A stretch of DNA of 20,000 nt from an uncultured virus (IMG/VR IMGVR_UViG_3300046168_000066) (Duplodnaviria; Heunggongvirae; Uroviricota; Caudoviricetes): the IMG/VR virus record IMGVR_UViG_3300046168_000066; one strand, given 5' to 3'. Made by a program: the position numbers and the translations under genes. Shown here one piece after another: positions 455 to 19,657 of this stretch. The notes beneath the pieces are model-generated. The model was given only the letters and a program-made list of their open reading frames with translations, ran no database searches and had not been told where the DNA came from. Position 1 is the first letter of the stretch. Each line of letters begins with the position of its first letter.

Positions 455-1027
455 ATGATAAGTCATAAACACAAGTTTATTTTTGTTCACATTCCCAAAA
501 CGGCAGGTCGAAGCATAGAAAAATATTTGCTAAATTTTAATTCTATGAGAGAAATGCAACCACATCACTCGGTCACCGATTACATTAAAAGAGTAAAAAA
601 TTTTAATTCTATGTTTAAATTTTCATTTGTAAGAAATCCATATGAAAGATTATTAAGTGAATATTTTTACATGAAGAGGATGAAAGGTTGTAACTGTGAA
701 TTTAAAGATTTTAAAATAGAGTGCAATACATTTAAAAAATTTGTAATTTCCGATGCGGTAGAAAAATGTTGTTTTAAACATCACAATACTCCACAAATTG
801 AAATGGCAAATCCCAAATACATGAATTTTATAGGAAGATTTGAAAATCTCCAAGAAGACTTTGATATTATCTGCGACAAAATTGGAATTCCACGACAACA
901 ACTTCCACACAAAAACAAAAGCAAACACAAACACTACACCGAATATTACAACGATGAGACGAAACAAATCGTTGCGGAAAAATACGCAAAGGATATTGAG
1001 TATTTCGGTTATAAATTTGGAGAATGA
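455..1027 (+). CDS. Sulfotransferase family 2 protein (carbohydrate sulfotransferase-like)
   Basis: 5'-PSB motif FIFVHIPKTAGRS, 3'-PB motif FVRNPYERLLSEY, then FIGRFENL and the C-terminal YAKDIEYFGY. Confidence 0.9.
   Translation: MISHKHKFIFVHIPKTAGRSIEKYLLNFNSMREMQPHHSVTDYIKRVKNFNSMFKFSFVRNPYERLLSEYFYMKRMKGCNCEFKDFKIECNTFKKFVISDAVEKCCFKHHNTPQIEMANPKYMNFIGRFENLQEDFDIICDKIGIPRQQLPHKNKSKHKHYTEYYNDETKQIVAEKYAKDIEYFGYKFGE
864..949 (+). repeat. 86-bp exact direct repeat, copy 1 (core of a ~190-bp near-identical 3' segment of the sulfotransferase genes)
   Basis: atattatctgcgacaaa...accgaatattac is identical to 1479-1564 (offset 615). Flanks are similar with scattered substitutions. Confidence 0.95.
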
Positions 1028-1030
1028 GGA

Positions 1031-1645
1031 ATGATAAGTCATAAGTATAAATGCATATTTATTCACATACCTAAATGTGGGGGTTCTTCAATAGAAAATG
1101 CCATTGATGGTAGAGACTGGTGGAATATAAACAAACCAATTAACATAAAATGTGAAAAACACTTTTCAGCTGAGAAGTGTAAGCAACAATATAGCAAGTA
1201 TTGGGAAGAATACACCAAATTTACTATGGTGCGAAATCCTTATTCATTACAAGTATCATGGTATTTTTTTAAAAATATATATAATCACAAAATGTCCTTC
1301 AAAGAATATGTTAAAAACGAAAAAATTAATCGTATTTCAAGATATAGTGGTGGGTTCTTAGATAAAAAGTGGAGTAAGATAATGCCAGACTTATTAACAT
1401 CTTACGAGTATATTTCAACTAATGGTGCAATTGAATTAGATTTCATCGGAAAATTTGAAAACATCCAAGAAGACTTTAATATTATCTGCGACAAAATTGG
1501 AATTCCACGACAACAACTTCCACACAAAAACAAAAGCAAACACAAACACTACACCGAATATTACGATGACGAAACTCGTCAAATCGTTGCGGAAAAATAC
1601 GCAAAGGACATTGAGTATTTTGGGTATGAATTTGGGAAAAGTTGA
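1031..1645 (+). CDS. Sulfotransferase family 2 protein, tandem paralogue
   Basis: IFIHIPKCGGSS, MVRNPYSLQVSWY, FIGKFENI and YAKDIEYFGY motifs. Starts 3 nt after the upstream stop. Confidence 0.9.
   Translation: MISHKYKCIFIHIPKCGGSSIENAIDGRDWWNINKPINIKCEKHFSAEKCKQQYSKYWEEYTKFTMVRNPYSLQVSWYFFKNIYNHKMSFKEYVKNEKINRISRYSGGFLDKKWSKIMPDLLTSYEYISTNGAIELDFIGKFENIQEDFNIICDKIGIPRQQLPHKNKSKHKHYTEYYDDETRQIVAEKYAKDIEYFGYEFGKS
1479..1564 (+). repeat. 86-bp exact direct repeat, copy 2
   Basis: Identical to 864-949. Confidence 0.95.
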
Positions 1646-2340
1646 TGAACGATACGCAAAATATTGCAATTGTATACTCAGCACACGGTAAGAAATATAC
1701 GAAATACGCAGAACGATGTGCAAGATATTCTAAAAAAATTATTTGCGACCAAAAATGTGATTTGGTATTTCATACTAATCACGATTATGATAATAGTGAA
1801 GGTATATTTGATAAAGTAGTTTATGAGAAAAATATTTTTCCATCACATAAGTCACACGCATTCAAAATACAAGGAATCATAAATTTGCTATGCAATACGA
1901 CATATAAAAAGTTTTTATACATCGATAGTGATGCCATTATACTAAAAAAAGATTTTATGATTCCGTTTGATTATTTAGATACTCACGATTTATTAGGTGT
2001 GAGTGCAAAAAAAGAATATGGTCCAAGTTCAAAGGAAATAGATTCTATTGGAAAGTATGTAAAAATTCCAAATAGTTTTGGTGAAATTAATACCGGAGTT
2101 ATTTATTACAATAATAATGCGGATATAATAAGATTAATGAAGAATTGGTTAGATTTTTTCTTAAATAACTATAAAAAAAAGTATGACCAAGGTGGGTTTA
2201 GATTATGTTTGTATGAGTCAGATATAAAATTTAAGAGAATAGATGATATTTTTAATCAAAGATTTAAAAAACCAAATAACGAAACCGTCATACTACACGG
2301 ACCGGGAAGCGTATTTAAGTTAATAGATAGTTGTTCTTAA
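1645..2340 (+). CDS. GT-A fold nucleotide-diphospho-sugar transferase (GT8/GT77-like)
   Basis: DxD motif FLYIDSDA, then INTGV, YDQ and a late ILHG. ATG at 1645 overlaps the upstream TGA (TGATG). Confidence 0.75.
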   Translation: MNDTQNIAIVYSAHGKKYTKYAERCARYSKKIICDQKCDLVFHTNHDYDNSEGIFDKVVYEKNIFPSHKSHAFKIQGIINLLCNTTYKKFLYIDSDAIILKKDFMIPFDYLDTHDLLGVSAKKEYGPSSKEIDSIGKYVKIPNSFGEINTGVIYYNNNADIIRLMKNWLDFFLNNYKKKYDQGGFRLCLYESDIKFKRIDDIFNQRFKKPNNETVILHGPGSVFKLIDSCS

Positions 2341-2365
2341 ATTTATATACAGAATATTTATTTAT

Positions 2366-3313
2366 ATGAAAAATGTAGCATTTATAGACTATAATATGTG
2401 TGAACGTGGAACAACGATTGCGACTTACGATTATGCACTACATAATGAAAAAATACTTGGTAATAAATCATTCATATTTTATGACATAAATTCAAAATCA
2501 AAAAAAGAAAAAGTAATTAGTAAATTTAAGAAACAATTTTGTGATGTGATTGGATTCACAAATTTTTCTGAAGTGGATAGTTACATAAGTCAAAATAAAA
2601 TTACTCATTTGTATAATTTAATAGGAGGTAGGTATAAACCTGCTTTGAGTAAGTATGCTAAAAATTGCATTCATTACGTTTTTACTTATCAAGATTATGG
2701 AGATATAAATGTTGCGTTGAGTCCTGTGATTAAAAATTTTAAAAAAAGTATGAATATCTTGCCCCACCTGGTTGACTTACCAGTTGTTACTAATGATTTA
2801 AGAAGTAAACTTGGCATTCCACCAAATTCAACTGTTTTTGGTGGATACGGTGGAAAGGATATGTTCAATATAAAAGAAGCACAAGAAGCAGTGTATGAGG
2901 TTGCTTCAAAAAATAAAAACATTTACTTCCTCTTTGCTAATTTTCATAAATTTTGTGATACATTGCCAAATGTTATTCATTTACCTTGTATTGTTGATAT
3001 AAAAGAAAAAGTTGAATTTATAAATACCTGCGATGCAATGATGTGGGCAAGAAAGCAAGGTGAAGTTATGAGTATGGCAATGGGTGAGTTTGCTACAAAA
3101 AATAAACCAATAATTGCTACAAAAAAAGGATTTTTCCGTGGCCACTGTCATATATTGGGTGATACGGCAATTTGGTATTCTACGAAACAGAGTTTGATAA
3201 ATATACTTGAAAATTTTGATAAAAACATAGAGTCAAATAAAAATTGGAATGCATATCGTGAGTATACTCCTAAAAAGGTTATGGAGATATTTAATAAAGT
3301 TTTTTTAAAATGA
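2366..3313 (+). CDS. GT-B (GT4-like) glycosyltransferase
   Basis: N-terminal RGTTIATYDYA. C-terminal FINTCDAMMWARKQGEVMSMAMGEF..KNKPII matches the GT4 E-x7-E / kPvi pattern. Confidence 0.7.
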   Translation: MKNVAFIDYNMCERGTTIATYDYALHNEKILGNKSFIFYDINSKSKKEKVISKFKKQFCDVIGFTNFSEVDSYISQNKITHLYNLIGGRYKPALSKYAKNCIHYVFTYQDYGDINVALSPVIKNFKKSMNILPHLVDLPVVTNDLRSKLGIPPNSTVFGGYGGKDMFNIKEAQEAVYEVASKNKNIYFLFANFHKFCDTLPNVIHLPCIVDIKEKVEFINTCDAMMWARKQGEVMSMAMGEFATKNKPIIATKKGFFRGHCHILGDTAIWYSTKQSLINILENFDKNIESNKNWNAYREYTPKKVMEIFNKVFLK

Positions 3314-4119
3314 AACTATCAATTTACACACGGATAATGCCAAGACTTGAAACTTTTTTTTTAGAAGAATGGATCGAACACAATTTGCAAATTGGAGTTG
3401 ATAAAATTTATATATACGATGCCGGTAATAAACCTTTTAACGATAGAGGTGGCCATAAAAATAGAACTGATGTATTTAATGATCTCCATCGAGAACTCAA
3501 TAATTCAGAAAAAAATATTAAGTGGGGCAAAAAACCAAATGTAGATTACTTTTTAGATTATACAGAAAAAGAAATTCAAGATAAATTGTATGAAATACAA
3601 AATAAGTTTAAAAAAAATACAGAAATTACAGATTGGAAATATGGAAAAAATCATAACGAAAAAGAAAATGTTCGTTCTCAGATTCTTGGATATAAAAATG
3701 CTGTAACTCAAAATAAGTCAGACTGGTGGATGTTGTTAGATCCAGATGAATTTTTACATAGTTGTGAGTTCACATATATCAAAAAATTTCTATGTCAAAT
3801 GGAAGAACAAAAAAAGTTTTCATTAAAATTATCTCAAAGAATTTTTAAAAATAGACAACGGAATGTTTCTACTAGGAAAATCTTTGAGTATAGTGGAGAT
3901 CTTAGGTTAACAAAGACATTGGTTAAATCACCTATAATTTCTGAACTAAAATTACATTCTGCCGAATCTACTTTGTCTACATCATACTTTGTTAAGCCAA
4001 GAAAATTTAGATTTAACCATTACAGAGGTCCTTCGGAGCAAATGGGCGGACCTGCATACGGTAAACTTATGTACAAACCTTTTAATAAAATTGATAAAGG
4101 TATGTTAAAATATCTGTAA
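3310..4119 (+). CDS. Glycosyltransferase, GT2_4/GT92-like
   Basis: FLEEWIEHNLQIGVDKIYIYD and WWMLLDPDEF (DxDE) motifs, late NHY. ATGA overlap with the upstream gene. Confidence 0.8.
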   Translation: MKLSIYTRIMPRLETFFLEEWIEHNLQIGVDKIYIYDAGNKPFNDRGGHKNRTDVFNDLHRELNNSEKNIKWGKKPNVDYFLDYTEKEIQDKLYEIQNKFKKNTEITDWKYGKNHNEKENVRSQILGYKNAVTQNKSDWWMLLDPDEFLHSCEFTYIKKFLCQMEEQKKFSLKLSQRIFKNRQRNVSTRKIFEYSGDLRLTKTLVKSPIISELKLHSAESTLSTSYFVKPRKFRFNHYRGPSEQMGGPAYGKLMYKPFNKIDKGMLKYL

Positions 4120-4130
4120 ACATTCACTTG

Positions 4131-4763
4131 ATGAAAAAAAAATTAATATATAGATTGGGCGATGTAGTGCGAACGCAATATTTTCACTTGGACACATCTT
4201 TATATACAGACGGTGAGTATAAGAATACGATTGCTGGTAAATATATGCAATCTACTACCGAAAAAAATAATTTTGATTTGTTAAATGAAATTGTCCTCAA
4301 TTTTGAAAAAAAACTTAAAATGACAAAACCAACTTCAAACGAGTGGGTTGTTCATATACGACTTGGTGATGTTTTGGAAAAATCCAAACATTCAGTTGAA
4401 GAACATTTTGAAAATGATATAAGAAGTGAGGGAAAAGGAATTTCGGATTCATTCTACATTAAACCAAAGATATTTTTTTTAAACAGAATAAACAAGATGA
4501 AAAAACTTGGGATAACGAAAGTAATAATCTGCTCAAAATTTCATAAAGCAGAAGATGATCACAAAAAGAGCAGTTTATATTTGGAAAATGTGATTGAATT
4601 GTTTAAACGTAATGGATTTGAGGTTAATTTAAGAGTCGGTAAATTTGATGCAGATGAAGATTTCACATTTTTAGTTAACTCAAAATACTTTACCAGCACT
4701 GGAGGTGGTTTTTCGTTATTCGCAAGTAAACTTATTGAACTTCGTGGCAACAATAATATTTAA
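4131..4763 (+). CDS. Fucosyltransferase-like (GT11/GT23-type donor-binding domain) protein
   Basis: VVHIRLGD (HxRxGD) and DADEDFTFL...TGGGFS resemble the GDP-fucose-binding motifs. It is short for a complete GT-B enzyme. Confidence 0.55.
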   Translation: MKKKLIYRLGDVVRTQYFHLDTSLYTDGEYKNTIAGKYMQSTTEKNNFDLLNEIVLNFEKKLKMTKPTSNEWVVHIRLGDVLEKSKHSVEEHFENDIRSEGKGISDSFYIKPKIFFLNRINKMKKLGITKVIICSKFHKAEDDHKKSSLYLENVIELFKRNGFEVNLRVGKFDADEDFTFLVNSKYFTSTGGGFSLFASKLIELRGNNNI

Positions 4764-4778
4764 TTTTTCAGTAGAGTA

Positions 4779-4786
4779 TATTTATA
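4779..4786 (+). promoter_or_regulatory. TATTTATA motif, candidate phage promoter
   Basis: In a 29-nt intergenic gap, 6 nt before ATG 4793. Confidence 0.45.
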
Positions 4787-4792
4787 ATAGAG

Positions 4793-6457
4793 ATGATTAA
4801 AACAGCAGTATACGCATATTGGGCGAAACCTTTTTTGGAAAAAGAGTCGTATAGCAATTTTGAACGAAAAAATGATTTGTTGGTATCATTAAGACTCAGT
4901 GTCGAGCAATCAAGAAAGTTTTTTGATAAAATTGTTTTTTATGGAGATCACGAAGCAATTGCACAAATTTGCAACATCGTAAAATTTGATGAAGTATACG
5001 ATGATGTAGAAGAACTAAACGAAAAAAATATTCCAAGTTATTTTTATTCTCTTCCAAAAGTTGTTGCGTGTGAAAAAATGAAAGAACCTTTCGTTTTAAT
5101 TGAAAATGATTTTTATTTGTGGGACATTCCAAAATCAAGTAACTTTTATGAAGCACCTTTAATTGTTGAGGATTTCCACGAAACTCCGATTGAGTTTTAC
5201 GATGAAATTGACAGAATGCAAGAAAAAGAAATGGCAACTCGTCCACGATGGTATCGTCTTGCTAAAAAAGGAAAATTTTCAATTCCACAAAAAGGAATAT
5301 ACGGTGGAAACGATATAAAGTTTATCAACGAACACGCATTGGAAGTTATGCGATTAGTAGACAATGAAACAAATCTTGAAATCTTTCAATCCGAAGAAAA
5401 CGAAAAATTATTTAAAAATACTCATCTTATTTACGATTTGTGGTATTGTGGAGCAAAAATAGATAGCACTCAGACACCTTCATTTGCGTTACGAGATTCC
5501 GACATTAAATACACTCATTTGTATGCTGACAAGAAAAACGATCCTGAAGTTTCTATTAAGTTGTATGAACGAGTTCGCAAAGATTTGCCGGACTTTATGA
5601 AGAAAATTGATGCAGACGGAGAAGGTGTTTATGATCCAGTTGAAAATTATGATTATTTTATTGAACCAACTCCTGGTATTCCTAACATTGAGATTGGTAA
5701 AAAGAAACTGACATTCGTTATGGCATTAATGAATCGCAAACATCAAATTGAAAAAACATTAATTAAAAACTTGGAAGATAATTGGGAAGACCGAGAAGAT
5801 GTTGAATTTGTGTTAATGGATGTAAGCAGTAAAGACGGATTTCGTGAGTGGTTACAAGAACAAAATTTAGATAAATACACCAAGTCGGGATATCTTCGTT
5901 GTTTTGAAACAGATGTTATTGATACTTGGCACGCCAGTATCGGCAAAAACACTGCAGCTCACCAAGCACACGGCCGTATCGTAGTAACTTTAGATTGTGA
6001 TAACTTCACAGGTTTTCGTGGAGGAAATTTCGTAATACAACATTTTGAAAAACACGATTACAATTGCGTTATGCACCAATTTGATTGGAATCCACAAAAT
6101 GGAAACTTTGGAAGAATTGCATTAACCAAAAACAAATTTGACGAAATAGGAGGATATGATCAATCATTGTTGCCTATGGGATATCAAGATTGGGATATCA
6201 TCAAACGAGCAGAAGCAATTGGTTGTGAATATATAAATCCAACGGATGCAGAATATAATCAAGCAATTACCAATGAAGGTGGAAAAGAACTTAGTATGGC
6301 AAATACGATTGATGCTCATAAAAAAATGGGTTGGACTGAAATGAATCGTATCAACAAATTAAAATGCCATCACAATTTGTATCGCAACAAACACAAAGCA
6401 AACGAAGGATACTACGGAATTCGTTCAAATGTACGTCGTATTTTAGATGAAGAGTAA
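4793..6457 (+). CDS. Two-domain protein: DUF6734-like N-terminus fused to a GT2/GT7-like glycosyltransferase
   Basis: C-terminal half has TLDCDNF (DxD), GRI and IGGYDQSLLPMGYQDWD. N-terminal half (YAYWAKPF..LSV..SRKFFDKIVFYGD..PK..EPFVLIEND) recalls DUF6734 from memory, not verified. Confidence 0.7.
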   Translation: MIKTAVYAYWAKPFLEKESYSNFERKNDLLVSLRLSVEQSRKFFDKIVFYGDHEAIAQICNIVKFDEVYDDVEELNEKNIPSYFYSLPKVVACEKMKEPFVLIENDFYLWDIPKSSNFYEAPLIVEDFHETPIEFYDEIDRMQEKEMATRPRWYRLAKKGKFSIPQKGIYGGNDIKFINEHALEVMRLVDNETNLEIFQSEENEKLFKNTHLIYDLWYCGAKIDSTQTPSFALRDSDIKYTHLYADKKNDPEVSIKLYERVRKDLPDFMKKIDADGEGVYDPVENYDYFIEPTPGIPNIEIGKKKLTFVMALMNRKHQIEKTLIKNLEDNWEDREDVEFVLMDVSSKDGFREWLQEQNLDKYTKSGYLRCFETDVIDTWHASIGKNTAAHQAHGRIVVTLDCDNFTGFRGGNFVIQHFEKHDYNCVMHQFDWNPQNGNFGRIALTKNKFDEIGGYDQSLLPMGYQDWDIIKRAEAIGCEYINPTDAEYNQAITNEGGKELSMANTIDAHKKMGWTEMNRINKLKCHHNLYRNKHKANEGYYGIRSNVRRILDEE

Positions 6458-6923: not shown

Positions 6924-7487
6924 ATGGATGTTCCAATGATAATCGGTTTAACGGGTCTTGCTCGTTGCGGTAAAGACACTTTTTGTAATTATGCAAGAAA
7001 ATATTTAAAGTCCCACAACTACGAAACGCAAAGACTTGCTTTTGCGGACGAACTCAAAAAAGATGTAGACGCATTTTTAATAGAGAAACTTGGCATTTCA
7101 GCATTTACAGAAGTTACCTCAGAAAAAGAAATTATTCGTCCTATGCTGACAACTTGGGGAACTGATATAATGCGAAAAAAAGATGATTTGCATTGGGTCA
7201 AAAAAGTTGAAGAAATTATTGTTGAAAATCAAAAAAACAATATAGTAAGTATTGTAACAGATATTCGTTTTCCAAATGAAATTGAATATATTCACAAAAT
7301 GGGTGGATGTGTAATTCATTTGACGATGACAGGTAATAAACCTGCTAATGATTATGAAGCAGAAAATGATCCATTGTTGCAAAAAACTGCAAATTGCCAT
7401 GTTGAATGGGAAAGGTACGGAGATGATGCTTTAGAAAAGTGCATTGCTCACGTTGAAACTGCATTTAACGAGTGCGTCAATAAGTAA
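6924..7487 (+). CDS. Deoxynucleoside monophosphate kinase (T4 gp1-like)
   Basis: P-loop IIGLTGLARCGKDT, then AFADELK, R..L..WGTDI.R and TDIRFPNE. Confidence 0.85.
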   Translation: MDVPMIIGLTGLARCGKDTFCNYARKYLKSHNYETQRLAFADELKKDVDAFLIEKLGISAFTEVTSEKEIIRPMLTTWGTDIMRKKDDLHWVKKVEEIIVENQKNNIVSIVTDIRFPNEIEYIHKMGGCVIHLTMTGNKPANDYEAENDPLLQKTANCHVEWERYGDDALEKCIAHVETAFNECVNK

Positions 7488-7529: not shown

Positions 7530-8294
7530 ATGAAGTATAATCCAAAGAAACGAAAAAGCACCAAAGAAGCACACGAAAACATGACGTTCATGAATAGTCG
7601 TGAAGCACGATGGTTGAGAGTTCTTGCGGAATTGATGGAAACAGAAGCCAGAATGAAAAAAACTGGAATTAGACACACAATTGTTTTTCAAGGAAGTGCA
7701 AGAATTAACGAAGAATCTGAACAATTTAAAAAGAATGGATATGATCGTTATTATACCGAAGCATATGAACTTTCAAAGCAATTAACCGAGTGGTCAGAAG
7801 AAAACTTCACAGAACGTAAAAACAAGTTTTATATCAGCAGTGGTGCTGGACCAGGGATAATGGAAGCAGCCAACAAAGGAGCACACGATGCCGGAGGAAA
7901 ATCAGTTGGTCTTGGTATCAAGTTACCATTTGAACAAACCAACAACGAGTATGTGACACCTGAAATGGATTTCGTTTATCATTATTTCTTTACACGCAAA
8001 TATTGGTTTCTTTATCAAGCAAAAGCGTTAGTTGTGTTTCCAGGTGGTTTTGGAACAATGGACGAATTATTTGAAGCATTAACTTTGATTCAATGTCAAA
8101 AGATTGAGAAACCTGTTCCGACAATTTTATACGGAAAAGACTTTTGGGAGAATGTTGTTGGGTGGGACAAATTCATTGAAGCAGGAACAATCAGCAAAAA
8201 AGACTTGAATTTATTCAAAATTGTAGATGATGTAGAAACTGCAAAAACTTTTTTGATTGAGAATCTTACAAAATACTATAAATTGCATTTCTGA
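7530..8294 (+). CDS. LOG-family nucleotide monophosphate phosphoribohydrolase (often mislabelled lysine decarboxylase)
   Basis: GSAR, SGAGPGIMEAANKGA, LPFEQ, YFFTRKYWF and the signature PGGFGTMDE (PGGxGTxxE). Confidence 0.92.
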   Translation: MKYNPKKRKSTKEAHENMTFMNSREARWLRVLAELMETEARMKKTGIRHTIVFQGSARINEESEQFKKNGYDRYYTEAYELSKQLTEWSEENFTERKNKFYISSGAGPGIMEAANKGAHDAGGKSVGLGIKLPFEQTNNEYVTPEMDFVYHYFFTRKYWFLYQAKALVVFPGGFGTMDELFEALTLIQCQKIEKPVPTILYGKDFWENVVGWDKFIEAGTISKKDLNLFKIVDDVETAKTFLIENLTKYYKLHF

Positions 8295-8335: not shown

Positions 8336-9491
8336 ATGAATAAAAAACTATTTACTTCAGAAAGTGTATCAAGTGGTCATCCCGACAAAGTATGCGACCA
8401 AATATCAGATGCAGTTCTTGACGCATTTTTGACACAAGATGCAAATGCAAGAGTTGCGTGTGAAACATTTGCGACAACAGGATTAGTTGTTGTTGGTGGT
8501 GAAATCACCGCAGATGGTTGGGTAAACTTTCAAGAAATTGCACGAAATGTGCTATCTGACATTGGATACACCGATGAAAAATACGGAATAAGTGCAAGTG
8601 GATGCTCTGTGTTGTTTACAGTTGATCGTCAAAGTGCTGATATTGCATTGGGAGTCAATGAAGGTGAAGGTGAGCATAAAGAAGCAGGAGCAGGTGACCA
8701 AGGACTTATGTTCGGATATGCTTGCAACGAAACACCTGAACTTATGCCATTGCCTATTATGTTGTCGCATCAAATTATCAAAAAAGTAGAAGAAGCACGA
8801 CATTCCAAGAGCATTCCTTATCTTCGTCCAGATGCAAAATCACAAGTTACGGTGGAATACGATGAAAACGATAAACCTATCCGTGTAGATACAATTGTGT
8901 TATCAACTCAGCATGACGAAGACGTAACTCAAGAAACAATCAAAGCAGATATCGAAGAACTTATTCGTGAAGTTGTAAATGAAAAGTATTTAATAGATAC
9001 CAAGTTTCATATCAATCCAACAGGTCAATTCATTATCGGTGGACCGCACGGAGATACAGGTCTTACTGGTCGTAAAATCATCGTTGATACTTACGGAGGA
9101 ATGGCAAGACACGGAGGAGGAGCATTTAGTGGTAAAGACCCAACAAAAGTAGATAGAAGTGCGGCCTTACATGGCACGACACGTTGCTAAAACAATTGTA
9201 GCAAGTGGGATAGCAGAAAAATGCGAAGTTCAACTTGCTTATGCTATCGGAGTTGCAGAACCTGTAAGTGTTCGTGTTGATACATTCCAAACAAGCAAGA
9301 TCGCCGAGACCAACATTGAAAATGCAGTAACTCAGAATTTTGATTTAACTCCAAATGGAATCATTGAGTTTCTTGGATTGAGAAAACCTATTTATCGCAA
9401 AACTTCTTATCACGGGCACTTTGGAAGAAACGATGTTTCGTGGGAAATGGTTGATGAAAATAAAAAGCAAATTTTTGCGGAACTTAAATAA
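8336..9491 (+). CDS. metK: S-adenosylmethionine synthetase, ~384 aa, split by one extra base at about 9165-9168
   Basis: [41 protein letters not shown] and [16 protein letters not shown]. Removing one base from gcggccttac restores the conserved DRSAAYMAR and joins ORFs 8336..9190 and 9159..9491. Confidence 0.95.
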
Positions 9492-9492
9492 A

Positions 9493-9939
9493 ATGGCAGA
9501 CGAAAAAGAAAAAGTATTATTGTACGATGCGATTGATTCAAGCATTCTAAAAAGCATTCCAAATCCAAGCAAAGAACCTTACGAAATCAAAGTAAAAGTT
9601 CCTGAGTTTACATTTCTTGGTGTGAACGAACAACCAGATTTCGGTGTGCTTTACATCACAATTTATCCAACCAAGAAAATCATTGAACTTAAAAGTTTAA
9701 AGCAATACACTTATCAGTTGCGTAATATCGTTGTATCTTATGAACGACTTATCAATGTTGTGTATGATCATTTAATGGAAGTGTATTCTCCTGATCGTTT
9801 GCGTTTAGTTTTAAAAAGCAATCCAAGAGGTGGAATCAGTAGTCGTTTGGTTATCGATAGTGATTGGTCAGCAAGAGGTGGTGAAGAAAAATATCGTGAC
9901 TGGGGATCAACTGACGATTCTTGGGAAGTAACTATGTAG
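9493..9939 (+). CDS. queF: QueF-like T-fold protein (preQ0 reductase homologue) lacking the catalytic cysteine, 148 aa
   Basis: PEFTFLGVNEQPDF, QueF motif ELKSLKQY, SYE and PRGGI. ATG at 9493, 1 nt after the metK stop, is preferred to the TTG at 9421. Confidence 0.8.
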   Translation: MADEKEKVLLYDAIDSSILKSIPNPSKEPYEIKVKVPEFTFLGVNEQPDFGVLYITIYPTKKIIELKSLKQYTYQLRNIVVSYERLINVVYDHLMEVYSPDRLRLVLKSNPRGGISSRLVIDSDWSARGGEEKYRDWGSTDDSWEVTM

Positions 9940-9949
9940 GAGATGTTTC

Positions 9950-10870
9950 TTGGTCAATGAATATTTGGTCATTAATCCTACGAATGGTTTAGGAAATCGT
10001 GTAAGATCACTTGCTTCATTTGCAGTTCTTGCTGATGAATTAAAATTGCCTTTATTTGTGCATTGGAGCAAAAGTAGTGGATTTGATGACACATCTATAT
10101 CAGAACTTTTCAAAACAGATGATATAAACTTCATTGATACTCACACTTGGAATGATATAAAGTCAAAGTCGTTTTCAATATCAGATCACATTGAAGGTGT
10201 ATGTGAAAATCACATTGATTCTGTGTACAAAGATAAACGGGTTCATTATATCAATAAAGTTTTAACCGGAGGGTTCAAGCAAATGACTGCAACGTCATCA
10301 AATTTATTGTCGTGGGCATTTGGCATTTATGAAGTTGACAAGCACATCAAAAATTTTAGTGGGAAATACAAAACACAATTAAGCAAATTGAAACCAAGTG
10401 ATAAAGTGATTAACGCAGCTCAAAGCACTCTTGATACTTTTTCAAAAAATATCATCGGAGTTCACATTCGTCAAGGAGATGCAACTTCACATAAAAACCA
10501 ATGGAGCAAAATGTATTCAGATAAAACATTAATTGCAATTAATGATCATTTTGATAAAACAAACACTCAAATATTTTTATGCACAGACGATCAAAAAACA
10601 TTGAATCAAATGCTAAACCGATATGGTAACAGAATAATTCATTATACAAAAACATTCGTTGATAGTTTATACGGAGAAACAAAAAAAGGTCAATTTGATG
10701 CAATGGTTGAATTGTATTTACTTTCACAAACAAATAAAATACTTGCAACAAGTCCAAGTTCGTTTGCAAAACTAGCAGCCGATTGGAGCAACAAAAACTA
10801 CTTTTCAACTCAACCAATTATTTTAGCAACTGGTAATCCAAAAAAGATGATTCAAATTTTACAAAGTTAA
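9950..10870 (+). CDS. Fucosyltransferase-like GT-B protein (NodZ/GT23/O-FucT type)
   Basis: GLGNR, IGVHIRQGD, IFLCTDD and AMVELYLLS...SSF motifs. TTG start lies 7 nt after AGGAG (9938-9942). Confidence 0.8.
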   Translation: MVNEYLVINPTNGLGNRVRSLASFAVLADELKLPLFVHWSKSSGFDDTSISELFKTDDINFIDTHTWNDIKSKSFSISDHIEGVCENHIDSVYKDKRVHYINKVLTGGFKQMTATSSNLLSWAFGIYEVDKHIKNFSGKYKTQLSKLKPSDKVINAAQSTLDTFSKNIIGVHIRQGDATSHKNQWSKMYSDKTLIAINDHFDKTNTQIFLCTDDQKTLNQMLNRYGNRIIHYTKTFVDSLYGETKKGQFDAMVELYLLSQTNKILATSPSSFAKLAADWSNKNYFSTQPIILATGNPKKMIQILQS

Positions 10871-10881
10871 TATATTTTAAT

Positions 10882-11661
10882 ATGTATTGTTTGATGGGTG
10901 ATGCAGAAAATATTATATTGTTTCCGTACTGGTGTGAAAAAGAACTTGAACGATTCAAGTTGATTGGAATGAATTGGAAAAAACTTACACACACAAACTT
11001 GAAATTGAGATTTGTGTTTGTTGGTAGATGGGATTGTAACAATATTGATATTAAAAAATATTCAAAGGTATTTGAAAAGTATGGAGTTGTATCGCACGTA
11101 GTTTTATCAACTCCACAATCACTCTCCCGTAAACCAACACGACACGATTTTGCCAAGCATATGTTTGTAAAAACAATGAAATACATAAACCGGTTTTCTA
11201 AAAGCAATGATGGAGGATTTGTGCTATGGATGGAATCGGATGTTATGTTTTTGAAAAATCAATGGTTGAACAAACTTTATGATGAATGGAGCAAGCAAAA
11301 AAATACTTTGTTGATGGGTCATTTAGTTTCGTACAAAAATGATACAGACCAAATTAAACGAAATTTTCCAAATCATATAAACGGAGTTGCTTGTTATGCA
11401 AAAAATATAATTGAGTATATTCCTGAAAATACATTTTATACTTCATACAGATCATTTGATGTTATTGTTTATAATCATTTGGTGAAAAGTAAATTAACGA
11501 ATCGAATTATATGCTCAGAACAATGGAAGCATCAATTAGACTTTGATTGTAATGAAGTTGAATTTGATGAAGTTGATTCCGATAAAATAATTTTACACGG
11601 ATGCAAAAGCAACAAAACTTTCAATAAACTTTTGAATGCACAAATCAAGGATACTGTGTGA
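10882..11661 (+). CDS. Putative GT-A-fold glycosyltransferase-like protein
   Basis: VLWMESD (ExD variant of DxD), HINGVACY, SFDV and a late ILHG. Lies between two GT genes. Confidence 0.5.
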   Translation: MYCLMGDAENIILFPYWCEKELERFKLIGMNWKKLTHTNLKLRFVFVGRWDCNNIDIKKYSKVFEKYGVVSHVVLSTPQSLSRKPTRHDFAKHMFVKTMKYINRFSKSNDGGFVLWMESDVMFLKNQWLNKLYDEWSKQKNTLLMGHLVSYKNDTDQIKRNFPNHINGVACYAKNIIEYIPENTFYTSYRSFDVIVYNHLVKSKLTNRIICSEQWKHQLDFDCNEVEFDEVDSDKIILHGCKSNKTFNKLLNAQIKDTV

Positions 11662-12395
11662 AACTATCATTTTTGACTGCTTGTATGGATCGTCTTCATC
11701 ATTTGAAGGAAACTTATTTGTATAATATTTCTCAAAGTAAATCTATTTCCAAGTGCGATGTTGAGTTTGTTCTGTTGAACTATAATTCAAGTGACGATAT
11801 AGACGAGTGGGTGAAACTAAACACACAAAATTTAGACATTGAATTCAAGTATCTCAAATTAGAAAATGCAAAGTATTATTCTCCGTCTATTGCAAAAAAC
11901 ATACTTGGAAAAAATGCAACTGGTGATTTGATGTGTTGGTTGGATGCGGATAATTATACAGAAAATGGATTTGTTAAATTTGTTGAGAATTCTTTTAGTG
12001 ATAATTTTGATCAGATTATGAAAGTAACCTGGAGTCAAGCAAACGCAGGTACAATTGGACGGATAGTGTGTTCTAAAGCAAATTTTATGAAAATCCGTGG
12101 TTATGATGAATCGTTTGTTGGTTGGGGATACGAAGATGTTGACTTTATTGACAGATTATCAAGATTCGGATTATCGCATATAGAAATACCTTCACAATTT
12201 TTAAGAAAAATTGATCACGGAGAAACCGAACGGATTTGTAATTATGATTCCAAGTATACAACAAAAATACCAAAGCATCATAAAAATCATATTATGAAAT
12301 ACGAATCAAATTTATTGAACTTTAACAAAAGTAAACAAAACTTAAAAAACAATAAACTTATTGCGAATTTGAAACCTGGATGGGGAGTTATATAA
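11658..12395 (+). CDS. GT2/GT7-like glycosyltransferase
   Basis: TACMDRLHHL, WLDADNY (DxD) and IRGYDESFVGWGYEDVD (WGxED). GTGA overlap with the upstream gene. Confidence 0.85.
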   Translation: MKLSFLTACMDRLHHLKETYLYNISQSKSISKCDVEFVLLNYNSSDDIDEWVKLNTQNLDIEFKYLKLENAKYYSPSIAKNILGKNATGDLMCWLDADNYTENGFVKFVENSFSDNFDQIMKVTWSQANAGTIGRIVCSKANFMKIRGYDESFVGWGYEDVDFIDRLSRFGLSHIEIPSQFLRKIDHGETERICNYDSKYTTKIPKHHKNHIMKYESNLLNFNKSKQNLKNNKLIANLKPGWGVI

Positions 12396-12419
12396 AATTA
12401 TAAAAACTCTCATTGTTGA

Positions 12420-12426
12420 TATTTAT
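12420..12426 (+). promoter_or_regulatory. TATTTAT motif, candidate phage promoter
   Basis: 7 nt before ATG 12434, with no SD. Confidence 0.4.
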
Positions 12427-12433
12427 TATAACA

Positions 12434-12970
12434 ATGGGAGCATCATCAAAAGATAAAGGAAATGCGTGGGAACTTGAAGTAGCAAAATTTCTTGAAGAGC
12501 ATTTCGAAGGCAAGTTCAGCAGAGTACCACGATCCGGTGCAATGTTTGGTGGAGAAAATGCGGAAAATGCTGAAGGTGAACGTTCTGACGTAGTTGAAAT
12601 ACTTTCAGGAGATATTATTACACCAAAAGACTTTCCATTTACGATTGAAGCAAAGCATTATGATGATTTTAAGTTCTCACATTTACTTCAAGGTGAAAAC
12701 AAGTTGCTTGATGGATGGTTGGTTGATGTTCAAAAAGATGCGGAACTTGCAAAACGTTTGCCTATGATAATGTGCAAATTCAGTTATATAGGAAGTTATG
12801 TGGTGTTTGATTATAGAATAGTCAAAACCAACGATGGAATTTGTCCAAGCACTTATTTTGAAAATCATTTGATATACAAACGCAAATGGATGATGATTTC
12901 GTTTGATGAGTTTGTAAACGTTAAAAATGTCATCGTTGATATGGCAAGATTAAAACTAAGGAATTCATAA
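12434..12970 (+). CDS. PD-(D/E)xK nuclease / Holliday junction resolvase-like (phage T5 D14-like)
   Basis: SKDKGNAWELEVAK, RVPRSGA, SGDI and TIEAK. ATG at 12434 preferred to the TTG at 12413. Confidence 0.8.
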   Translation: MGASSKDKGNAWELEVAKFLEEHFEGKFSRVPRSGAMFGGENAENAEGERSDVVEILSGDIITPKDFPFTIEAKHYDDFKFSHLLQGENKLLDGWLVDVQKDAELAKRLPMIMCKFSYIGSYVVFDYRIVKTNDGICPSTYFENHLIYKRKWMMISFDEFVNVKNVIVDMARLKLRNS

Positions 12971-14247: not shown

Positions 14248-17200
14248 ATGGCTGATGGAAAAAAAATTAGTGAACTGACGGAAACAAATTCATTGACAGA
14301 TAACGATGAATTTCTTGTGGTAAACAAAGAAATAACAAACGGAACAAATGCGGGTTCTGGAGGACAAACGAGTATCATTAAGTTTAGTGATCTCAAAACA
14401 CAAATTGGTTCTCAAGGAGAAAAAGGAGACGATGGACTTGCTGGTCCTGATGGTAAAAATGCGTATGATCTTTGGTTAGACGAAGGCAACACAGGAAGTC
14501 TTACCGATTTCTTTGATTCGTTCAAAGGACAAGATGGTACGGCAGGTGCTCCTGGTCCTGCTGGTGCTGATGGAGTTGATGGAGCTCAAGGTCCTGCGGG
14601 GTCCTGCGGGTGATTCTGGATTCACAATGGACAATGACGGAAAACTTACATTAGGTGATGCGAATGTTGGTATAGGTAATTTTAGTGGAGCATCTCCTGA
14701 AGCAACTATGCACATTCGCCACGCAACTCCCACAGTTCGTTTGACAGACGTTGCTTCACCGGGTACATCAGACTACCTTATTACGAACGATAATGATAAA
14801 CTAACAATCGGTACTGATCCGGGTGGAGATGTAATGACTTTTAGTGGTCCTAATGTAGGAATTGGCAATTCTGCACCTGATCATATTTTAACGATATCTT
14901 CTGAAGGAAATCACGGTGGTCTCAGAATGGTGGGTAGTGCTGGTAACGATAATCATATCCGATATGATTATCCGTCTAGTCAAACGAAATACTGGTTAGC
15001 AGGATGTGACTCAACTGGATCGTTGGCCAACGATTTTTTAATTTGGAATTCAGAAAGAGATAAAGTGGATTTCATCGCAAACCATGATACTGGTTACGTC
15101 GGAATCGGTGGTGCGATGTCTCCAATAGCAAAAATGCACGTACTTGGTAGTACTGCAATTGAAGCAGGTCGTCTTGATTTTTATCCTAACGAGGAAACAG
15201 GTACTTACGTTGAAATCGTAAATCGTGGTAAAATGTTAGACAATAAAACCGGAGGTGCAGGGTAACGCAAAAGGAATTAAGTTTTGGGCAGATAGTGGCC
15301 AAGGAAATCCTGATGTTACAATTGAACCAAATATACTTAGAGTTGACGGTACTGTTGAAGCAACAAACTTTACATTAGATGGAAAAGCATTTTCATCAAC
15401 CGATTTGAAAGGACCTGCTGGACCCACAGGACCTGCCGGAACAAGTGGAACAAATGGAACAGACGGATCAGACGGAGAAGATGGTAATTCAAATGCTCAT
15501 CTTGATTTACAGTATTCTTCAAATATTTCAATTGATGCTGACGGTCAAGGAATGAGCAAAGTCGGAGGATCAAATGGATGGAATGCTCACGTATATTCTA
15601 ATGTTTCATACAATTCTGGTTGTGTACTTGGTTTTATTCCAAATGTAAAAAATAATCCAACTATGCTTGGTATCAATACAGACCCAGGAACAAATACAAA
15701 TTGGAATACACTTGATCATGCGTGGTATATTCAAGGTGATGGTAATTGTAGTATTTATGAAAGTGGTTCAAAAATTGGAAGTACCATAGGTAGTTTTGCA
15801 GTTGGTGATGTTTTCACAATTACATACGACAATAACGTTGTTAGGTATTTCCAAAAAGGTGTACTTAAAAGAAGTGTAACAATTGGAAGTGGAAAAACAT
15901 TTCACTTTGATTCATCATTCCACAACACAGCATCAACTCGGGTTACTCGTATGGTTTCATTTGCTCCAATGGGTGCAGTTGGAACAAAAGGTGATAAAGG
16001 TGATAAAGGTGATCGTGGTCTCACAGGACCAACCGGAACAGTCGGTGCATCAGGACCTGCTGGACCACAAGGTGTTCAAGGTCAATCTGGACAACCAGTT
16101 GAAGTAACTTCACCTGTATCAAGATGGGATGCTTCTTCTTGGTCAACCGGTGGAACTCTTAACGCAATTATTGGTGACAAACCAATTTATCTTGGTGGAG
16201 AAGAAGGAAACTTCGGAGAATCTTCAACAATTCGTATGGATGGATCACGTGGTAAAGTATTTAATTTGCCACCACGTGGAAAACGTAGAAGTGGCAACGG
16301 AAACTTCATTCAAGCAGGTGATGTCCATGATAATATTTTTATGAGTGGAAACTTTACCATTTCAATGTGGGTAAGACCACGTGCATATCTTACCACAACG
16401 GGAAGTGCTAGTAATTTGAAATCATCACCTGGTGCATATATGTCTAAGTGGTATACACAAAATACAAACGGAACAAACAATTCGTTTATTATTTACTCAA
16501 ATGGTCAGTTTTATAGTGCGTATTCTCATAGTAGTACATTTCAAAATACAAGTGATTATCCAAAGTTAAACGAATGGACTCACTTGTCGTATGTATTAAG
16601 TGGTGGTAATTTAACTGTATACAAAAATGGTAAACAAGTTCCGTTGAAGTTTAATTTACTTTCTTCTGCTGGAAATAAAACTCCAAAACACTTGTTTAAT
16701 AATTCAAGTTATCCACTTGAAGTTGGTTCAATTCGTAGAAACGGAGGATATACACTTGATGGTATGGTTGATGATATTCGTATTTTTGACAAACCTTTGT
16801 CTGCGGGTGAAGTTTGGTTTACATACAATGGTGTAGGTGGTGGAGGACTTGTTGGTCCTCAAGGACCACAAGGTACGAAGGGAGCAACCGGATCATCTGG
16901 ACCAAGAGGTCAAGCAGGACCGACTGGACCAAGAGGTATACCTGGTCCAGCAGGAAGCAACGGAAATGTTGGTCCAACTGGTCCTAAAGGTGCAACGGGT
17001 GCTAAAGGTGATAAAGGTGATTCCGGTACAAGTCATGTTGTTAATTATGCTTCAAACAGAAATTGGGGAATTGGTAATAATGTAGCACTCGGAGCATCAG
17101 AACCCGCATCGGGTGGAAATTTTACTTCCAACGGAGCTGCATCTGAAAACAATATTCATTGGGACATCGGTCCATTTGGTCGTAGAACGAAAATTTGGAA

Positions 17201-19657
17201 AGCAAGAAACAATGATACTGCAAGCAATGCAGATGGTGGTTGGAATAAAGGAATAGTAGGTCTTGATCCAAATAAAGGATATATGTCAGTTACTTATGTA
17301 AGACGTGTGGGAAGTATTACAAGTGGTTCTTTTTATCACGGATGTGGTCAAGGAAAAATTACAAAAAACTTGAATGGAACTGTAAATGGTAATCCTTATT
17401 TTAATGCTTTTGGTATAAGTTTATTGCCTAAAGATGTATGGTGTGTTTCAATCGGATATATCCGTGCCGCTAATGATAATAGTACGGCAAAAGGAAATGG
17501 TGGAGTATATCGTTTAGATACTGGTGAAAAACTTGAAACCAACCGAGATATCGACTATAAAATGGTCGGCACAACACAAACTCACAGAACTTATTTGTAT
17601 TATTCAACAAATAGGGTGCTGCTTCTTTGGATTGGGCATTACCTGGATTTTATGAAGTTGCAAGTGATTCACCAACATTGTCAGATTTACTTGGTAAAGT
17701 AGGTGATTCGGCACAATCCACCAACTATGCAGTAACATCAAGTTCATATAGTCCTGCAACGATGGGTGATGCGAACTTTATGTCTACACTGCAATCACAA
17801 GGACAACTAATTTATATAGAAGATTTGATCGCAGATCCAAGTATAATTACCAAAATCGGAGCAGCTGAGTTAAATAATGTAGGAATGGTTGTGCGTGATC
17901 CTGCCAAGTTAAGTAAACTGAACGGAACTACACGTACACTTTACTATGATCAATCAAGTCCGTTTCTTAAACGTAATTATTATTTACAATTAGGAACAAG
18001 TGGACTTACACACACATACAATGGAAGTCATCCATTTAAATCACATAATTTATACATAAAATCTTGGACTAGTTCATACAAGTATCTTGTAGCAACCTCC
18101 GGAATGGCCGGAGTGGCCGGAGCAGCCGGAGCAACTGGCCCAAGAGGTCCAGCAGGTCCTGCCGGACCAATGCCTAATATTAGTGACATTCAAGGTCAGC
18201 AATTTGGTGTTCTTAAAACAAATAAGTTGGATATGAATGGAACTGTTGAACTTGATAAATCAAGTGGGGATTCTCATTCGATAACGTTCAATAAGGGTGC
18301 TAATGTTAGATCAAATTCAAGTGGTCAAATGCATTATCGTTCAACAAATGGTACACACGTATTTACGACCACCGGAAATGGTCCTGCAACGATTTCTGCT
18401 CATACCATCAATGCCGCTAAAGTTACTTTAAGTGCAGTTGATTTCAATGGAACAACGACTACATTCAAAGGAACATCAAACTGGGGAAGTACTACTATTG
18501 ACGGAATGGGTGTAAAGGCTTGGAAAGGAAATGGAATGTATGTGCATCGTGCTGATAACAAGATGTATGCTCAGTGGACAATGGATGGTCTTGGATCGAC
18601 ACGATTTGATGTTCACGCACATACAGGTGCTGGAGCAACAAAAGATTGGAAAAAGTATATTTTTGATAATCGTTTGATGATAGATACGAATCAAGTTCAT
18701 GGTAGTTTGCACTCAACAATTCGCACACATCGTGAAAACACCGACAAACAACCAAATTCTTTGCATATTCTTGCAAATCACGGTGACTTGCTTCTTGAAG
18801 CAAATAACATTCGTGCGGGAGTAAATCAGCAAGCAACTGTCGGAGGTCACGGTAGTATTATATTCAGAGCACACGGAGTTCCTGTAGTCGGTCACGTTGT
18901 AGACTCAACAAATAGTAATTCTGTTGCGTACAAAAAGCAACGAGGTGATTACATTTACGGAGCAACAACTGGTGCGAACGCATATAATCGTTATCGTCAA
19001 AAACACTTCCACGGAAATTCACGTTCTTCCGTAGGAATGAAACTTATTGGTGGTGCATTGATTCCAACATATGGAACTGTTGACTTGGGAGCACCGATTA
19101 ATGCACACCGTTTTGATACATTATGGTGTCGTAATGCTCCTGATGTTTATTCTGATAGACGTGCGAAGAAAAACATCGTTGAATCCGATCTTGGTCTTGA
19201 TTTCATTAATAAACTTAAACCTGTAAGTTACAAATACAAAGACAATAAAATCTTGGTGGAAAAACCATTAGAAACTGATGGTTCTGCTGACAAGGAAGAT
19301 CGCGAAGAAATGAAAGTTGATACGGTCAATGAAACACACGGAAGAACTCACTACGGAATGATTGCTCAAGACGTAGAAAAAGTTCTTGACGGAAAAGACT
19401 TCGGTGGATTTGTTAATCCTAATTATTCTCTTGAAGATGGAACGGAGGGTAAAGGAGAACTTCATATGAGTCTTCGTTACGAAGAGTTCATTTCACCTAT
19501 GATCAAATCAATTCAAGAAGTTGATAAAAAAGTCAACACTATCAAAATGAATGGAAATGATTCAGAAATGAATGAAATTAGAAAAACTCAAAAGGATATT
19601 CTAAAGGCAATTGTACGTCTTACAAACAGAATTGATAATATTGAAAAGAAAAAGTAA
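14248..19657 (+). CDS. Long tail fibre / receptor-binding protein, ~1800 aa, with collagen-like repeats, LamG domain and C-terminal peptidase S74 chaperone; three frameshifts in this sequence
   Basis: GGAG SD and N-terminal KKISEL. Five Gly-X-Y tracts, VGIG repeats, and a LamG-like FTISMWV...WTHL...DDIRIFDKPLS. Ends with YSDRRAKKNI...LKPVSYKYK...GMIAQDV...LRYEEFI. The four ORFs join at about 14600, 15261 and 17615. Confidence 0.88.
15987..16013 (+). repeat. (AAAGGTGAT)x3 tandem repeat encoding KGD collagen triplets
   Basis: Read directly; two further copies lie at about 17004-17021. Confidence 0.85.

Follow-up and report, generated by a model that had tools for sequence, protein, structure and literature searches.

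We analyzed a stretch of 20,000 nucleotides of DNA from an uncultured virus of the Caudoviricetes (IMG/VR record IMGVR_UViG_3300046168_000066), referred to here as the window, and focused on its open reading frame (ORF) 9493-9939 on the plus strand. This ORF, called gene X or simply X, encodes protein P0001, a QueF-like protein of 148 residues with zero cysteines; the name X is also used for the cysteine-less family to which it belongs. Directly upstream lies metK, the gene for S-adenosylmethionine (SAM) synthetase, whose stop codon occupies 9489-9491; X begins immediately after it, at 9493. The wider setting matches an uncultured tailed phage of marine origin, and in 20 seawater runs, which come from 19 studies, at least half of the words sampled from the segment 8336-9939 are present. 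The features of the window and of X are collected in Table 1.

Table 1. Features of the window and segments of protein X, with positions in the window
Feature	Position	Strand	Basis or remark
Sulfotransferases and glycosyltransferases	455-6457 and 9950-12395	+	Pfam scan
dNMP kinase	6924-7487		
LOG/SLOG-family gene	7530-8294		
metK (SAM synthetase)	8336..9491	+	Pfam S-AdoMet_synt N/M/C on 8336-9190, C on 9159-9491
Gene X	9493..9939	+	Cysteine-less QueF-like T-fold protein, 148 amino acids; proposed NAD(P)H-dependent 5,10-methylene-tetrahydrofolate reductase
Active-site loop PEFTFLGVNEQPDF	9601..9642	+	Alignment; one residue shorter than the QueF loop
QueF (NADPH-binding) motif ELKSLKQY, residues 65-72	9685..9708	+	Includes Glu65, equivalent to Glu78 of B. 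subtilis QueF
SYER segment, residues 82-85	9736..9747	+	Glu84 equivalent to the pterin/purine-anchoring Glu97 of QueF; SYE replaces FHE
PRGGIS, residues 111-116	9823..9840	+	Common to X and QueF
C-terminal tail IDSDW..RGG.EK.RDW....D.W.V.M, residues 121-148	9853..9936	+	Family-specific, absent in canonical QueF
PD-(D/E)XK resolvase-like gene	12413-12970		
Collagen-repeat tail fibers with Peptidase_S74 chaperone domain	14248-19657		

X passes the Pfam QueF domain model (PF14489; E = 5.4e-16, score of 59 against a cutoff of 27.3) and stays below both equivalog cutoffs, with 83.3 bits against 86.9 for TIGR03139 (QueF-II, unimodular) and 21.9 against 293 for TIGR03138. Its annotated start is consistent with homologue lengths of 141 to 148 amino acids, and the closest solved structures by sequence are those of Bacillus subtilis QueF (4F8B, 4FGC, and 5UDG; E of about 1e-15). 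An AlphaFold2 model with a mean predicted local distance difference test score of 88.9 shows strands at residues 32-42, 48-58, 102-109, and 118-122 and helices at 66-78 and 83-98, while the tail is of low confidence as a monomer (73 and 59 in the last two 10-residue blocks). The best superposition found by Foldseek in the PDB is with unimodular QueF (4FGC/4F8B; template modeling [TM] score of 0.76), and the next ones are with bimodular QueF, GTP cyclohydrolase I, and QueF-L. X is a member of the tunneling-fold (T-fold) superfamily, with its beta-beta-alpha-alpha-beta-beta core, and of the Pfam QueF domain family.

The active site was mapped by alignment of X to B. subtilis QueF (bsQueF; 4F8B, 4FGC). 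The catalytic residues of bsQueF are Cys55, Asp62, and His96, and its ligand contacts are Phe33, Val77, Glu78, Ser79, Phe95, Glu97, and Ile130 (according to the available part of a 2026 review, PMC13740343). In the alignment, PEFTFLGV-NEQPDF of X falls on PEFTSLCPKTGQPDF of bsQueF with one gap in X. Because this puts one residue upon the other, the equivalent of the thioimide-forming Cys55 is Gly43 (GGT, 9619-9621); the adjacent Pro56 corresponds to Val44, and Asp62 is kept as Asp49 (9637-9639). The QueF motif, defined as E(S/L)K(S/A)hK(L/Y)(Y/F/W) in the accessible parts of PMC13740343 and PMC10516641, is present in X as ELKSLKQY, so that Glu78 is retained as Glu65, and Glu97 is retained as Glu84. 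The other positions have changed: three stacking residues are swapped (Phe33 to Ile22, Phe95 to Ser82, and Ile130 to Ser117), and Val77, Ser79, His96, Asp98, and Cys99 of bsQueF are replaced by Ile64, Leu66, Tyr83, Arg85, and Leu86, respectively. X thus retains the NADPH motif and the residues facing the 2-amino-4-oxopyrimidine edge of the ligand, has lost both its nucleophile and the flat sandwich of aromatic residues for preQ0, and has gained a conserved Arg and a Trp/Arg-rich, Trp/acidic tail (IDSDW...DW..DDSWEVTM). The anchoring of a 2-amino-4-oxopyrimidine ligand by a Glu or Gln is a general feature of T-fold proteins. A catalytic Cys that had "migrated" to another position was considered and rejected: the Cys of xCNPRGG in bacterial members is not shared by the phage clade, which reads KSNPRGG, nor by other clusters, where F, L, or T occupies that place.

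The original prediction, made from the letters of the window, had described the exchange of Cys for Gly, the lost Pro, the shortened loop, the complete lack of Cys, the retained motifs, and the tail, and every element of this description is correct. It had also named a Cys in the reads or in the nearest homologues as a possible refutation. We found Gly43 to be invariant in 21 of 21 aligned relatives (67 to 97% identity), and its codon is spanned by contigs of three independent seawater runs (X1 to X3, records 6, 13, and 22, respectively; Logan contigs, not raw reads), where all listed differences lie elsewhere. Given this invariance and the unchanged codon, Gly43 is not a sequencing artifact. 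The five differences of the X1 contig within the gene are all synonymous, and the ratio of nonsynonymous to synonymous substitution rates (dN/dS) of X is 0.06 to 0.08 against the four closest viral loci (L081 to L084). Gene X is functional and under strong purifying selection. As a side observation, one base at window position 9902, within the codons of the C-terminal tail, is absent in part of the contigs from runs X2 to X4. These contigs also differ at 9878-9883 and diverge beyond 9937, and they probably belong to a related phage with another tail end and another downstream gene.

The cysteine-less family and its gene neighborhoods

A word-indexed search retrieved 3,479 relatives of X. The best 120 are all 68 to 97% identical to it; among them are genes on the chromosomes of Cyclobacteriaceae, other Bacteroidota, Syntrophorhabdaceae, and Marinoscillum that carry the name "preQ(1) synthase" in their source. 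An exhaustive search of representatives at 50% identity gave 1,110 clusters at an E value of ≤1e-3 and 162 at ≤1e-10. From 150 representatives listed, we retained the 102 of at least 110 amino acids and aligned them with P0001. Among these 102, about 69 show the pattern E[FLVI]TF[LI]G...QPDF together with SYER and have no Cys at the catalytic position, and about 32 show PEFTS[LVI]CPxTGQPDF together with F(H/Y)E. The conserved Cys-less FTFLG..QPDF clade for which the earlier reading had suggested a search therefore exists, among both the aligned relatives and the cluster representatives. SYER, invariant in the 21-relative alignment, is also the usual form among Cys-less representatives, while those with the Cys read F(H/Y)E, and Glu84 is invariant across an 86-row alignment. 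No variation in the NADPH motif or in Asp49 is seen within the clade.

The tail is conserved in the 21-relative alignment, and part of the Cys-less group carries its signature IDSDW..RGG.E...DW. A quick tree (101 rows, 147 columns) unites the tail-bearing sequences in one 37-row group (Shimodaira-Hasegawa-like approximate likelihood ratio support of 90), within which X of the window falls into a phage subclade with 100% support. Since many forks in this tree are unresolved, we claim no single origin for all Cys-less forms. The family spans dozens of 50%-identity clusters from Bacteroidota, Gammaproteobacteria, Syntrophorhabdia, Neomarinimicrobiota, and many marine phages. Among 50,697 phage records searched with tblastn for cultured relatives of X, only canonical QueFs were found, at less than 40% identity. 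Fusions of the Cys-less domain are represented by six longer proteins at an E value of ≤1e-20, all singletons (P0275, P0274, P0126, and P0273 among them). With Lar_restr_allev, Peptidase_M19, and a class I SAM-methyltransferase domain as partners, they are too sparse to serve as Rosetta stones and may be gene-calling artifacts.

To characterize the genomic context in bacteria, we scanned the neighbors of 16 of 34 clade loci against Pfam. In three loci (L001, L009, and L012), X sits between a separate ORF for the homocysteine-binding part of the methionine synthase MetH and the ORF for its pterin/B12/activation part, and in L001 and L009 it overlaps the upstream ORF by about 20 nucleotides. L146 likewise has X inside a split MetH, and the ORF layout of L013, seen from the ORFs alone, resembles that of L001, L009, and L012. 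In other loci, X is divergent from a full-length MetH (L006), stands between a pyridoxal phosphate enzyme of Cys/Met metabolism and homoserine dehydrogenase (L023), or lies 3' of a gene for a Pterin_bind protein (L016). The remaining contexts are uninformative, with a TRAM-domain RNA methyltransferase gene adjoining X in three Marinilabiliaceae (L017, L019, and L028) and a peptidase M13 gene in L029 and L033.

The clade also comprises 40 viral loci, in 38 of which the X ORF was called. Here, we scanned 122 neighboring ORFs, omitting some ORFs and the loci L098, L113, and L114, which are near-duplicates of L097 and L110. On a 273-kb viral contig (L115), the order is MetK, X, MetH (1,178 amino acids), and AdoHcyase. 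X is followed by the methionine synthase MetE in L100 and L101, the latter also having MetK two genes upstream, and it is preceded by MetK in L110, L112, and L116, as in the window. A PNP_UDP_1 family gene (methylthioadenosine/S-adenosylhomocysteine nucleosidase or purine nucleoside phosphorylase) follows X in L109, L110, and L117. The other viral contexts are unrelated (DUF2452, ribonucleotide reductase, transaldolase, clamp loader, and PD-(D/E)XK nucleases). MetH and MetE, which are not related to each other, have only the substrate 5-methyl-tetrahydrofolate (5-methyl-THF) in common. Of the enzymes of the methyl cycle, MetF is the one that never adjoins X in the neighborhoods scanned.

Two further arrangements recur. 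DUF2452 (PF10504), a gene of about 140 amino acids, adjoins X in eight viral loci (L088, L090, L091, L093, L094, L096, L097, and L101) and may be a phage-specific partner. It was rejected as an obligate partner because neither the window nor the 34 bacterial flanks contain a homologue, and it is not part of the core. In 8 of the 13 X loci fetched from Bacteroidia (L135, L136, L137, and L140 to L144), X and the riboflavin synthase gene (two Lum_binding domains) converge, with CHU_C/type IX secretion proteins on the flanks; this shared synteny probably reflects one lineage.

Distribution relative to QueC and MetF

We determined the distribution of X in a sample of 301 Bacteroidia genomes, the class of carrier genome G001, for which completeness figures are not part of the data, using E-value thresholds of ≤1e-30 for the X profile and ≤1e-20 for QueC. 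X occurs in 15 of the 301 genomes. QueC was found in none of the 15 carriers at this threshold, and in all 15, X is the sole QueF-family match. In searches of individual genomes, G001 and G004 showed no QueC, and G002, G003, and G005 have it; X occurs together with a canonical bimodular QueF in G002 and G005 (Pleionea and Marinilabilia). The window and the scanned neighborhoods showed no queuosine or Dpd genes. On a T4-like viral contig with an adjacent Gp23 capsid gene (L093:4422-6318), a canonical bimodular QueF, X, and DUF2452 stand in a row, with a gene for a dATP/dGTP diphosphohydrolase N domain upstream.

A Cys-to-Ala mutant of QueF (C190A) is inactive (table in the part of PMC13740343 available). 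Judging from the exchange of Cys55 for the invariant Gly43, X cannot be a canonical thioimide-forming preQ0 reductase, which is what the original prediction had put forward, and in view of its distribution as well, we consider X very unlikely to be a preQ0 reductase. Of the alternatives offered at that time, imine reduction without a covalent step agrees with the mechanism favored here, while its substrate is more likely a folate than a deazapurine. The proposals of a ligand sponge or of a dominant-negative subunit for host QueF find no footing in the Bacteroidia: since all 15 carriers are without QueC or a second QueF-family gene, they would have neither preQ0 nor a QueF to interfere with. 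The gene context belongs to methionine and SAM rather than to queuosine.

We then compared the occurrence of X with that of the folate enzymes of the methyl cycle, defining MetF by PF02219 at an E value of ≤1e-10 and MetH by PF02965 and inferring nonmatches from absence in the lists of matched genomes. MetF is present in 263 and MetH in 271 of the 301 Bacteroidia genomes. Only 1 of the 15 genomes with X has MetF, against 262 of the 286 without X (Fisher exact test, P = 3.2e-13). Folate enzymes are not generally depleted in the carriers, which have MetH (14/15), SHMT (15/15), and DHFR (14/15). Since they keep these enzymes, 5,10-methylene-THF (CH2-THF) should be made and 5-methyl-THF consumed, and the known enzyme between the two was not found. 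The 24 noncarriers that have neither X nor MetF include 15 that also are without MetH. G099 and G185, ordinary noncarriers with MetF and MetH, entered the tallies only. The sole MetF match in a carrier (G277:C67:13888-14742; 388.9 bits, the best of the sample) lies in a 583-amino-acid open frame on a different contig; it may represent a MetF fusion or contaminating sequence in the metagenome-assembled genome (MAG).

In a second, nonrandom set of 34 carriers from several phyla, MetF is absent from 20 and present in 14. The MetF-less carriers belong to Cyclobacteriaceae, Flammeovirgaceae, Chitinophagales, Crocinitomix, Polaribacter, Kangiella/Kangiellaceae, Neomarinimicrobiota, and Syntrophorhabdales, so that with Kangiella, Neomarinimicrobiota, and Syntrophorhabdales the pattern extends to independent lineages outside the Bacteroidia. 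None of 27 viral records carrying X has MetF, which is a weak test since phages rarely carry this gene. With MetF not found, MetH present, and X clustered with methyl-cycle genes, X shows the pattern expected of a gene that fills the slot between CH2-THF and 5-methyl-THF, a position that it would thus occupy by comparative evidence.

A proposed reduction of methylene-tetrahydrofolate

Methylenetetrahydrofolate reductase (MTHFR) catalyzes the committed step by which one-carbon units enter methionine and SAM. Taking active site, neighborhoods, and distribution together, we consider it probable that X is a flavin-free, T-fold, NAD(P)H-dependent CH2-THF reductase. X would be a homo-oligomeric enzyme descended from unimodular QueF that retains the nicotinamide site and the 2-amino-4-oxopyrimidine anchor, Glu84, and has lost the covalent step. 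CH2-THF would react as its 5-iminium form, with Asp49 acting as an acid that aids opening of the imidazolidine ring to the N5-iminium ion, and the hydride of NAD(P)H would pass straight to the exocyclic carbon, yielding 5-methyl-THF for methionine synthase. Judged by chemical structure, N5 of the pterin matches position 7 (C7) of 7-deazaguanine relative to the oxo-pyrimidine ring, so the exocyclic iminium carbon of CH2-THF should come to lie at the place where the second hydride reaches the QueF imine carbon. The reaction of X would then be the second, imine-reducing half of QueF chemistry, and the Cys would be dispensable because a preformed iminium needs no thioimide. Arg85 and the tail may hold the p-aminobenzoyl-glutamate part of the folate. 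X would replace or back up MetF in bacteria, and the metK-X pair of the phage would draw one-carbon units into methionine and SAM, sustaining the flux between them during infection. In a bolder version, X would perform two successive hydride transfers like QueF and convert 5,10-methenyl-THF directly into 5-methyl-THF.

Among known enzymes, the nearest relative is unimodular QueF (YkvM type of B. subtilis, the NADPH-dependent preQ0 reductase, EC 1.7.1.13), with which X shares about 35% core identity, a length of about 150 amino acids, and the retained residues and motifs described above, as well as, presumably, a ring oligomer with intersubunit sites. It differs from unimodular QueF in the substitutions listed, in its loop and tail, in scoring below the TIGR03139 cutoff, and in occurring without QueC in methionine/SAM contexts. 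A QueF paralogue whose chemistry changed on this fold is the crenarchaeal archaeosine synthase QueF-L (5JYX/5K0P; TM score of 0.63 to 5JYX), which took the opposite path, since it kept the thioimide Cys and lost NADPH-dependent reduction (accessible part of PMC10516641; PDB title). With MetF, an FAD-dependent TIM barrel, X would have in common only the reaction and the slot in the pathway; it is nonhomologous, has another fold and about half the size, is expected to use no flavin, and gave no PF02219 match in the Pfam scan. Direct, flavin-free transfer of a hydride by NADH to CH2-THF is established for the mycobacterial MTHFR (MSMEG_6649/Rv2172c; Mfr), as described in the parts of PMC13001107 and PMC13522567 available to us. 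These enzymes, which like MetF are not homologous to X, resemble it in the proposed direct step from nicotinamide to CH2-THF and differ from it in being monomeric, NADH-dependent, and MTHFR-folded, in contrast to the T-fold of X.

The described MTHFRs, i.e., the flavin-dependent, the MetFV-type, and the flavin-free mycobacterial enzymes, all have the MTHFR fold (2026 review, PMC13001107, as far as available). In the literature, we found no paper that ties relatives of QueF to methionine synthase, to MTHFR, or to methyl-folate. The available portion of the same MTHFR review mentions neither "T-fold" nor "QueF," that of the 2026 QueF review (PMC13740343) does not contain the term "cysteine-less," and that of a paper on phage 7-deazaguanines (PMC10516641) covers only Cys-bearing QueFs. 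The main text of a 2026 GapMind preprint (10.1101/2024.10.14.618325), in its accessible part, does not mention "QueF" and treats metF for another organism only. We lean toward a wider view, in which an unrecognized family would have turned the QueF nitrile reductase scaffold into a flavin-free MTHFR, a third, nonhomologous solution, and phages would have adopted it as an auxiliary gene for a private methyl cycle. If so, X would fill an annotation gap in many bacteria that have MetH and are without MetF, and the "preQ(1) synthase" names on these genes, which wrongly imply queuosine synthesis, could be corrected. It would also be a clean case of an enzyme that dropped a covalent step and kept half of its chemistry, and abundant marine phages would carry MetK, X, and sometimes MetH, MetE, or AhcY for SAM supply. 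This is a specific prediction, one that neither workers on queuosine nor those on folate would expect, and it lends itself to a test by complementation.

Several observations weigh against assigning X to this step. The argument is built throughout on comparative genomics, and most viral as well as many bacterial neighborhoods of X are uninformative; the window itself has no metH, metE, or ahcY. X and MetF occur together in the 14 carriers of the second set mentioned above, among them all seven Marinilabiliaceae, Pleionea, a Parvicellaceae MAG, and Longitalea. The anticorrelation of X and MetF goes back to few independent lineages, perhaps five events in Bacteroidia, and since the genomes are related and 8 of the 13 fetched loci share one synteny, the Fisher P value overstates the evidence. 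Nine sampled genomes have MetH and neither MetF nor X, and a divergent X was not found in them either (no QueF-family match at an E value of ≤0.001). These nine show that the absence of MetF has further causes, e.g., incomplete MAGs. Finally, Syntrophorhabdus aromaticivorans (G003) has QueC and X as its sole QueF-family gene, which leaves room for a role with preQ0.

The same neighborhoods and active site would also fit an enzyme that reduces or repairs a different pterin or folate of the methyl cycle, for example, one that converts oxidized 5-methyl-dihydrofolate to 5-methyl-THF, a quinonoid dihydropterin reductase, or an enzyme for the two-step reduction of the methenyl to the methyl form. 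A complementary job of this kind would make the coexistence with MetF in 14 of 34 carriers natural, and QueF itself carries out two successive hydride transfers in one site (available part of PMC13740343). We nevertheless regard this explanation as unlikely, since an auxiliary enzyme leaves the loss of MetF in 14 of 15 carriers that keep MetH, SHMT, and DHFR unexplained. The presence of DHFR in 14 of the 15 makes a DHFR role unnecessary, and X as a replacement for DHFR was rejected on the same ground.

We give still less credence to X as a noncatalytic binder or regulator, be it a sponge for folates or purines, a chaperone handing 5-methyl-THF to MetH or MetE, or a subunit that poisons host QueF. 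A pseudoenzyme would be expected to have lost its catalytic Cys, and the overlap of about 20 nucleotides in L001 and L009 couples X translationally to pieces of MetH. A mere binder, however, would have no need for the NADPH motif and Asp49, which are invariant in the clade, and it could not supply the missing MetF step; the Bacteroidia carriers, moreover, have no QueF to poison. Least credible is an action on preQ0 or another 7-deazaguanine (a salvaged base or a base of phage DNA or tRNA) by a noncovalent or altered mechanism, for while QueF is nearest in sequence and fold, X retains the equivalents of Glu97, Glu78, and Asp62, G003 combines QueC with X as its sole QueF-family gene, and X adjoins a canonical QueF in L093, such a role is at odds with the lack of QueC in all 15 carriers, the inactivity of the Cys-to-Ala mutant, the replaced preQ0-stacking residues, the missing queuosine and Dpd genes, and the occurrence of X together with true QueF.

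Other genes of the window

In the window, a single extra base near 9165-9167 breaks metK into two frames (8336-9190 and 9159-9491). This base is absent from the contigs of 4 of 4 seawater runs, showing that metK is intact in the phage population; the frameshift arose in assembly or is a rare variant present in the source of the window. None of the window genes tested has a cultured relative above 40% identity.

The island in which X and metK lie comprises at least six genes resembling glycosyltransferases (DUF6734, GT2, GT92, and NodZ/fucosyltransferase-like) as well as two sulfotransferases, suggesting glycan modification directed by the phage. Farther downstream, the overlapping plus-strand ORFs 14248-14613 (collagen repeats) and 14513-15265 precede an 815-amino-acid collagen/laminin-G fiber gene and may be one gene broken by a frame error or a real overlap.

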